64,000 nucleotides of DNA, taken from the NCBI RefSeq assembly GCF_044324875.1, contig NZ_CP172185.1; one strand, given 5' to 3'. The notes under the pieces were generated by a model. That model was given only the letters and a program-made list of their open reading frames with translations. It did not search any database and was not told the origin of the DNA. The stretch is from Escherichia coli (GTDB lineage: Bacteria; Pseudomonadota; Gammaproteobacteria; Enterobacterales; Enterobacteriaceae). The position numbers and the translations under genes are program-made. Shown here in pieces: positions 21,870-22,028 of the stretch (position 1 is its first letter; the number at the start of each line of letters is the position of its first letter).

Positions 21870-22028
21870 GTGAAAGATATTTTATTTTCTTCTGGCGTTG
21901 GTTTTGGCATTGGTGCTTTGTTTACAATCGTGCGCTTGCCTATTCCTGTACCAAATGTATTACCGGGTATATTATCCATTGTGTTTATGTATGTCGGATA
22001 TCTGGTGGTGAAATACTTTATGCCATGA
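21870..22028 (+). CDS. Small hydrophobic protein, XapX-like (about 52 aa, two predicted TM segments)
   Basis: GTG-initiated ORF VKDILFSSGVGFGIGALFTIVRLPIPVPNVLPGILSIVFMYVGYLVVKYFMP with aagg about 9 nt upstream. Below the 60-aa cut-off of the ORF track. Position between xapB and xapR matches what I recall of the XapX/DUF1427 family. Confidence 0.4.
   Translation: MKDILFSSGVGFGIGALFTIVRLPIPVPNVLPGILSIVFMYVGYLVVKYFMP

Follow-up and report, generated by a model that had tools for sequence, protein, structure and literature searches.

The stretch of DNA considered here (hereafter the window: 64,000 nt, one strand, of the Escherichia coli contig NZ_CP172185.1, assembly GCF_044324875.1) carries a xap locus for xanthosine utilization, and within the 251-bp spacer between xapB and xapR a small open reading frame (ORF), xapX, takes up 159 bp (21870..22028; all features of the locus lie on the + strand). 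xapX, which has a GTG start, 52 codons, and a TGA stop, belongs to the XapX/DUF1427 family (TIGR03510; RefSeq WP_000651752.1) and is almost certainly a real, translated gene. The best overall explanation is that it encodes a non-essential accessory of nucleoside utilization that forms a helical hairpin, a reading to which we give a probability of about 0.45.

The case for a gene is comparative. In a peptide scan of the genome collection, xapX turned up in the interval from xapB to xapR of Escherichia sp., Pseudocitrobacter, Citrobacter, Phytobacter, Entomohabitans, Chimaeribacter (Yersiniaceae), and Pragia (Budviciaceae); Limnobaculum was found later. Codon analysis covered nine aligned genomes from eight genera, Limnobaculum not among them. 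The ORF is 52 codons long in 9/9 aligned genomes and 51 in Limnobaculum, begins with GTG or ATG, and is preceded in 10/10 orthologs by a Shine–Dalgarno (SD)-like element 5–7 nt 5' of the start (AAGG, AAGGA, AGG, AGGAGG, or GGAG); in the window sequence this element is AAGG, 7 nt before the GTG (21859..21862). In the spacer alignment, conservation is restricted to the ORF, with variation at third positions (21, 10, and 45 variable columns at the first, second, and third codon positions, respectively), and the flanks are unalignable. The median pairwise ratio of nonsynonymous to synonymous change (pN/pS) across the nine genomes is 0.178 for xapX, 0.183 for xapB, 0.244 for xapR, and 0.122 for xapA; judged by these ratios, xapX has been held, from Escherichia to Budviciaceae, under purifying selection as strong as that acting on xapB. 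Two synonymous and no nonsynonymous differences separate the window copy from K-12, and eight synonymous and no nonsynonymous differences separate it from Escherichia sp. MOD1. The other five frames contain 3–42 stops over the nine sequences or have pN/pS values of 0.4–3.7. A preliminary description of this DNA, made from the letters alone, had proposed a GTG-initiated 52-codon ORF with a plausible SD in the xapB–xapR spacer, and had named conservation and dN/dS across relatives in Enterobacteriaceae as a check: the window sequence bears out the former, and, for the latter, the frame is kept while the alternative frames fail.

The translation, as read in the window over 52 codons, is MKDILFSSGVGFGIGALFTIVRLPIPVPNVLPGILSIVFMYVGYLVVKYFMP. 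It is strongly hydrophobic (grand average of hydropathy 1.31), and its charged residues are limited to K2, D3, R22, and K48. AlphaFold2, given a 66-sequence family alignment, predicts a hairpin with a mean predicted local distance difference test score of 91.8. Helix 1 comprises codons 2–20 (21873..21929) and is glycine-rich (G9, G11, G13, G15); codons 21–30 (21930..21959; V-R-L-P-I-P-V-P-N-V), modeled as non-helical, form a turn that corresponds to the family signature (K/R)LPIPAP; and helix 2 comprises codons 31–50 (21960..22019), with conserved G33, G43, Y41, and Y44. Among the 66 family sequences P24, P28, and G43 are invariant, and G11, G15, F18, L23, P26, G33, and I37 are nearly so. The hydropathy and the predicted hairpin agree with the hydrophobic two-helix membrane peptide envisaged in the preliminary description. 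A PDB sequence search and a Foldseek fold search with XapX returned no homolog or analogue among solved structures.

Assignment to the XapX family, also suggested beforehand, is borne out by the match to NCBIfam TIGR03510 (score 64.2 bits, cutoff 27.8; E = 5.8e-18; residues 4–50 on positions 2–48 of the 49-position model). XapX is a full-length member of that family, with matching size, the two-helix hairpin, and the (K/R)LPIPxP turn, and with no structural difference. The name ‘XapX’ of TIGR03510 derives from the position between xapB and xapR, and the E. coli locus is the founding member. An exhaustive profile search recovered 75 representative clusters at E ≤ 1e-3, mostly of 50–60 aa. The proposed search against the Pfam DUF1427 model had a different outcome: a Pfam-A scan of the E. 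coli protein gave no family at E ≤ 1, DUF1427 (PF07235) included, though 32/42 more distant XapX relatives match Pfam DUF1427 (E ≤ 0.01) and 41/42 match TIGR03510. The link of XapX to PF07235 is one of transitive homology only, and the protein is appropriately filed under TIGR03510. The RefSeq product name is ‘DUF1427 family protein’ despite the lack of a Pfam DUF1427 match, which indicates that the name comes from another rule or model.

xapX is an already-known annotated gene without an assigned function, and the gene call itself adds nothing new. The RefSeq annotation pipeline PGAP records it as ‘DUF1427 family protein’ WP_000651752.1 under 19/19 sampled full-length matches, the sample being spread over the identity range and taken from the approximately 4,060 genomes with the xapX region; approximately 4,060 of 5,426 complete E. 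coli genomes carry that region. The exact sequence is present in UniRef (J7QTV3_ECOLX) and on at least 1,000 contigs, and the supplement of a small-ORF (smORF) catalogue for Enterobacteriaceae lists XapX as ‘xapX domain protein, TRANSMEMBRANE’ (PMC11188072). Thus, the description of the ORF as unlisted holds for the ORF track from which it was made and for the curated MG1655 record, but not for RefSeq/PGAP, UniRef, or the smORF catalogue. The curated record (NC_000913.3) has no feature between xapR and xapB, where xapX corresponds to complement 2522518..2522676 (L004, 2019–2177); PGAP-annotated K-12 derivatives (e.g., J53) do carry xapX, with the identical protein accession WP_000651752.1. Over 501 bp, the spacer region is 100% identical to that of E. 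coli KE55 and 95.2% identical to that of K-12 derivatives. The remark that small membrane proteins of this kind are rarely characterised is apt here: a search of the literature on XapX and DUF1427 found no functional study, and what it did find was one table line on a protein of 92 aa from Citrobacter koseri and a domain census from 2005 that guessed at a plant association. The distribution observed here does not support a plant association of DUF1427.

Within the xap locus, xapX directly follows xapB (20561..21817), which encodes a 418-aa xanthosine:H+ symporter of the nucleoside:H+ symporter (NHS) family of the major facilitator superfamily (MFS), and which is itself preceded by xapA (19667..20500; xanthosine phosphorylase), the first gene of the operon. 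xapR (22069..22953), encoding a LysR-type activator of 294 aa (MERVY...), begins 40 nt 3' of the xapX stop. Across ten Enterobacterales genomes xapX lies 34–107 nt downstream of xapB and between 40 and about 890 nt upstream of xapR. Among the 5,426 complete E. coli genomes, xapB was found in 4,071–4,076 and the xapX spacer in 4,059–4,084, the two being present or absent together; about 25% of the genomes (approximately 1,350 of the 5,426) are without both. In strain RM14721 (L003), IS1A replaces the 5' part of yfeN, together with xapA, xapB, xapX, and the first codons of xapR. Limnobaculum has deoC between xapX and xapR, in the order xapA-xapB-xapX-deoC-xapR (L149, 4365–5313), which echoes the nupC-[X]-deoC order of marine deo operons ([X] denoting the family member in gene orders here and below). 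In Pragia, the gap of about 890 nt between xapX and xapR (L012, 6001–7050) is assumed to hold deoC.

The association with nucleoside genes extends beyond xap. Metagenomes were scanned with a DNA pattern encoding [KR]LPIPAPx4Gx2Gx2G, which leaves out the enterobacterial xapX orthologs and so gives a sample independent of xap. At least 80 loci were recovered; among the 80 listed, which are not a random sample and in which ORFs were called by a crude longest-ORF method, 79 carry a true family ORF of 45–61 aa, and these fall into 25 clusters (70% identity). At the 44 listed loci outside a phage-like cluster, the Pfam families counted most often among the 117 genes up to two positions from the family member were DeoC (7), NupC-type transporters (6), DeoA (5), TatD (4), and ArgS (4), followed by genes for preQ0. 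[X] stands directly after nupC in at least six metagenomic loci; one such order (L059) is prfC-tatD-nupC-[X]-deoC-deoA-deoB-deoD. In other loci, [X] lies between an adenosine deaminase (ADA) and a DeoD-type purine nucleoside phosphorylase (PNP) (L026); [X] is set 3 nt from the end of a nucleoside hydrolase gene (L082); and a 58-aa family member is found in the order pfkB–PNP–adenosine deaminase–[X]–phosphopentomutase-like. Additionally, a Citrobacter-type paralog heads a same-strand cluster of deoR/pfkB, tsx, an inosine-uridine (IU) nucleoside hydrolase, and nupC. By phmmer, homologs of nucleoside-catabolism proteins account for 13/75, 8/52, 5/39, and 3/30 ORFs at offsets 1 to 4 from [X] in the listed loci, and for 1/111 at offsets of 5 or more on the same contigs (0.9%, vs. 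17% at offset 1). All the nucleoside-catabolism matches beside [X] in these loci are on the same strand as [X], and the phage-like cluster gave 0/318. These counts show local enrichment of the family in nucleoside-catabolism operons. Approximately seven architectures are represented: xap, Budviciaceae xap with deoC, nupC-deo, rih/tsx/nupC, ADA-PNP (twice), and IU-hydrolase.

Other members have different neighbors. One is inside a cluster for biosynthesis of preQ0 (7-deazaguanine), in the order queE-queD-[X]-folE-queC (L034, 776–3412), and another is directly upstream of a Vut_1/YhhQ-family transporter, which is followed by a ParB_N-domain protein (L080, 983–2346). Adjacent, diverged pairs of family genes occur at three loci (L013, 5688–6138; L014, 13–462; L022, 221–893). 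At L022, three small genes stand in a row beside a Pfam-confirmed formamidase (FmdA_AmdA), genes 2 and 3 of the row (63 and 67 aa) being only putative family members; the L013 pair adjoins ORFs that are acetamidase/formamidase-like by eye. Such pairs suggest hetero-oligomers, and possibly a subfamily with a different partner pathway.

That XapX functions in nucleoside utilization in some form, be it as an accessory of a transporter or as a pore for bases, is probable when these two options are taken together. Between them we tentatively prefer, at somewhat less than even odds, an accessory, itself dispensable, of the nucleoside transporter encoded with it. As a helical hairpin, XapX would lodge in the inner membrane, where it could self-associate through its glycine-rich helices; hints of oligomerization are the near-invariant glycines in both helices and the adjacent diverged gene pairs, which occur in some lineages. 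It would most likely associate with, stabilize, or tune the transporter encoded beside it, which is XapB here and a NupC-type protein elsewhere. The small gene directly follows nucleoside transporters of two unrelated families, NHS (XapB) and the concentrative nucleoside transporters (CNT; NupC). In the preliminary description, the role of the peptide had been tied to the xanthosine permease. This is plausible insofar as xapX directly follows xapB, but too narrow: three genera have the permease without xapX, and family members elsewhere adjoin other nucleoside genes and other transporter families.

There are precedents for small partners of transporters. AcrZ (with AcrB), MgtS (with MgtA and PitA), KdpF (with KdpABC), and SgrT (with PtsG) are small inner-membrane proteins, mostly of a single helix, that bind and modulate transporters. 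Like XapX, they have about 50 aa or fewer, are hydrophobic, are encoded in or beside a transporter operon, and are dispensable under many conditions. They have no sequence relationship to XapX, which unlike them is a two-helix hairpin and belongs to a family that accompanies unrelated transporter folds.

Expression of such an accessory would most likely come from xanthosine-induced xapAB transcripts that read through a weak hairpin and U-tract. The hairpin (21826..21854) begins 8 nt after the xapB stop and consists of the stem-loop GCAGCUCUG-UUCCU-UGGGGCUGC followed by UUUUAU; it is terminator-like or may stabilize the 3' end. Its nine-pair stem (21826–21848) has five GC pairs, the TTTTAT after it provides only four consecutive U, and the fold energy is −13.1 kcal/mol with a modest z-score (−1.1 to −2.6). 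A stem-loop follows xapB in 8/9 genera, with differing sequences, with compensatory changes among Escherichia alleles, and with a U-tract in only some; different stems occupy the position in Citrobacter, Phytobacter, Chimaeribacter, and Pragia. Because Klebsiella, which lacks xapX, has a comparable hairpin 3' of xapB, the structure looks like the 3' end of xapAB rather than part of xapX. With just 21 nt from the hairpin to the GTG, there is no space for a promoter between them; hence the xapX transcript would arise either by polymerase reading through a leaky terminator or from a promoter within the terminal part of xapB. Co-transcription with xapAB is plausible from this arrangement, and read-through past the hairpin would make XapX less abundant than XapB.

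A mini-ORF of five codons (ATG ATA AAG GTT AAT TAG; MIKVN; 21853–21870) ends with a stop that overlaps the xapX GTG. Overlapping mini-ORFs of six codons occur in Pseudocitrobacter and Phytobacter and none in the other genera, and the mini-ORF is possibly incidental to the terminator tail.

Several observations weigh against XapX as an accessory of the transporter beside it. A terminator-like hairpin stands between xapB and xapX. The published account of the xap circuit has two operons and three genes, with xapR in a separate, constitutive operon (PMC7205307), which leaves a xapX-xapR transcript open as an alternative. Intact, syntenic xapA-xapB-xapR loci without xapX are present in Klebsiella huaxiensis (L146), Enterobacter (L147), and Lelliottia (L148), all picked through XapB, not XapX; their xapB–xapR spacers are 100, 67, and 67 nt, respectively, and hold no XapX-like coding remnant. 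Because the rest of the locus is intact in these three genera, XapB does not need xapX, which was either lost there or never gained. It is mechanistically awkward, furthermore, for a single small family to bind unrelated transporter folds (MFS, CNT, and Vut_1). The nucleoside-positive nupC-deo loci are one sequence cluster (nine of the listed loci), so that independent lineages number approximately seven and not 21. Many members occur in non-nucleoside contexts: after argS, at nuoH-cvpA, at an FMN (flavin mononucleotide) reductase with AraC, and next to a formamidase. A further non-nucleoside setting is a phage-like freshwater cassette, which makes up 35 of the listed loci (cluster 0) and runs, on a single strand, MazG–RecA–103 aa–XapX-like 51 aa–112 aa–PD-(D/E)XK nuclease–RuvC. 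Finally, a Ribo-seq supplement has no entry at K-12 2,522.4–2,522.7 kb, a negative of little weight because xapAB is silent without xanthosine.

In Klebsiella, Enterobacter, Leclercia, and Kosakonia, the smORF catalogue indicates another DUF1427 paralog (PMC11188072), through which the family may still be represented in genomes with a xapX-free xap locus. The phage-like cassette is found at loci of cluster 0 between L028 and L105 (e.g., L094, 8634–12829) and at L017, and its family member is well conserved. In the haloarchaeal tailed viruses HCTV-1 and HCTV-16, a hypothetical protein with 46–50% identity to the phage-type XapX-like peptide is encoded beside a clamp-loader gene (KC292029.1/NC_021330.1, 46369–46518; MZ334524.1, 47786–47887).

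A broader proposal is that XapX/DUF1427 constitutes an unrecognised, widespread membrane component of nucleoside and nucleobase handling, either by oligomerizing, as a minimal two-helix unit, into a pore or facilitator in its own right for free bases and heterocycles related to them, or as a universal partner of mutually unrelated nucleoside transporters. We regard this as rather unlikely as a whole. It would entail independent recruitment of the family into xap, deo/nupC, rih/tsx, ADA (add)/PNP, and preQ0 clusters, and also into the nucleotide-metabolism modules of phages and haloarchaeal viruses. If it were true, a fourth member of the well-studied E. coli xanthosine ‘two-operon’ circuit would so far have been overlooked.

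The main alternative, though an unlikely one, is that hairpins of the XapX family form their own small homo- or hetero-oligomeric pore or facilitator, independent of any nucleoside importer. Such a pore would carry a small solute related to purines or pyrimidines through the inner membrane; it might, for example, let out a free base (xanthine, hypoxanthine, or thymine), which accumulates when only the pentose of the nucleoside is used. The constant partners of the family fit this idea, being enzymes that cleave or convert nucleosides (PNP, DeoA, nucleoside hydrolase, ADA, DeoC) and not one transporter family; no transporter is within reach in the pfkB-PNP-ADA-[X]-phosphopentomutase-like and ADA-[X]-PNP arrangements, and members are present in the preQ0 cluster and beside the Vut_1/YhhQ-family transporter. 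The adjacent diverged pairs are reminiscent of other minimal transporters whose genes come in pairs, the conserved glycine spacing suits tight helix packing, and the loss of xapX where xapAB is kept fits a separable function. However, the helices offer almost no polar or charged residues with which to line a pore, there is no sequence or fold similarity to a solved channel or transporter in the PDB and Foldseek searches, and the phage-like, argS, and nuoH contexts are left unexplained.

Comparison with established minimal transporters gives a similarly divided picture. Proteins of the small multidrug resistance (SMR)/EmrE type and the Fluc/CrcB pairs are built from subunits of four helices, with conserved functional residues that are polar or charged. 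They share with XapX very small subunits, a need (presumed for XapX) to oligomerize, and occasional adjacent diverged pairs (as at L013, L014, and L022), whereas XapX has two helices with essentially no polar residues there, and no fold or sequence match to them. Subunit c of the F-type ATPase, one of the glycine-rich proteins that form rings, is likewise a two-helix hairpin, with a short conserved loop of polar residues and proline and with repeated small residues in helix 1 that permit tight packing; XapX is not homologous to it, lacks an ion-binding carboxylate, is half its size, and has no ATPase context.

Less probable again is a role in cis for xapR, by which the XapX peptide would have no specific role and the ORF would be kept for the expression of xapR, as an upstream ORF (uORF) or through translational coupling, or as DNA of the xapR promoter. 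In E. coli the xapX stop lies 40 nt from the xapR start, the terminator-like hairpin parts xapX from xapB, and the 3' part of the spacer contains both a promoter-like site and a peak of RNA-polymerase binding in vitro. The promoter-like site, which overlaps the xapX stop, is a weak sigma-70-like match (ATGATA-17-TATTAT, 9 of 12; 22025..22053) and a candidate promoter for xapR. The polymerase peak, obtained with RpoN holoenzyme, is reported for the xapB–xapR spacer (PMC8743547). A search for sigma-54 motifs gave 355 matches vs. 345 expected and nothing convincing in the xapB–xapR spacer, and an Rfam scan of 21600–22300 found no element. Our placement of the peak in the 3' part of xapX depends on an assumed offset between genome versions. 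Against a role in cis, selection acts at the amino-acid level (pN/pS 0.178; 8 synonymous vs. 0 nonsynonymous differences from Escherichia sp. MOD1), the peptide family is conserved in operons that have no LysR gene, and the distance between xapX and xapR varies from 40 to about 890 nt, with deoC inserted in Budviciaceae, compared with 34–107 nt between xapB and xapX. On the grounds of amino-acid-level selection and variable spacing to xapR, an upstream ORF for xapR was rejected.

It is very improbable that XapX is a membrane-damaging small peptide, of the type I toxin or holin-like kind, resident in the xap locus by chance. The idea takes its appeal from the small size and high hydrophobicity of the peptide, from weak matches of 3/42 relatives to Pfam Phage_holin_3_3 and of one marine relative to PHROG holins (E about 0.002), and from the presence of the family in phage-like contigs and haloarchaeal tailed viruses. 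The weak holin matches, however, span half of the models and are probably compositional, and no match to a holin, PHROG, or Pfam family was obtained for the E. coli protein. The neighbors of xapX are xapB and xapR, with no lysis genes nearby and no Rfam element in 21600–22300; the phage-like cassette carries functions of replication and recombination rather than of lysis; and xapX is a single-copy gene at one locus, with stable vertical inheritance and purifying selection. Class II phage holins do share the small two-helix form with XapX, as well as the weak, partial model matches of a few relatives and the virus-like contigs; they differ in that E. coli XapX gives no match to them and sits in no lysis cassette, and in that chromosomal members of the XapX family are found in catabolic operons under purifying selection.

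A chance, untranslated ORF in an AT-rich spacer, to which the gap in the curated MG1655 annotation and in the searched Ribo-seq supplement might point, is for practical purposes refuted by the comparative data, namely a length of 51–52 codons across ten genomes of Enterobacterales, conservation of the SD, variation at third positions, and a pN/pS matching that of xapB, together with the TIGR03510 match (E = 5.8e-18) and the 75 representative clusters at E ≤ 1e-3 in the exhaustive profile search. The remaining probability covers roles outside the explanations listed here.

Farther along the window, an RtT RNA element (Rfam RF00391, 51.6 bits; 23062–23187, − strand) lies between xapR and gltX, just downstream of four tRNA genes (Lys and three Val, according to RefSeq; 23221–23614, − strand). 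The tRNA-Val copies between xapR and gltX number three in KE55 and MG1655 and two in the J53 assembly.

The curated MG1655 record and the published xapABR models treat the xap locus as three genes, and consequently a ΔxapAB or ΔxapABR knock-out could either delete a fourth, conserved gene as well or leave it in place. What the present analysis adds to the existing annotation is the family-wide tie to nucleoside catabolism, seen in approximately seven operon architectures that are independent of one another; E. coli would be a convenient organism in which to test the link between XapX and nucleosides. Should XapX prove to be either a transporter accessory or a minimal base pore, the functional small membrane proteins would gain a family from many bacterial lineages, as these are inferred from the operon contexts, and from some viruses.

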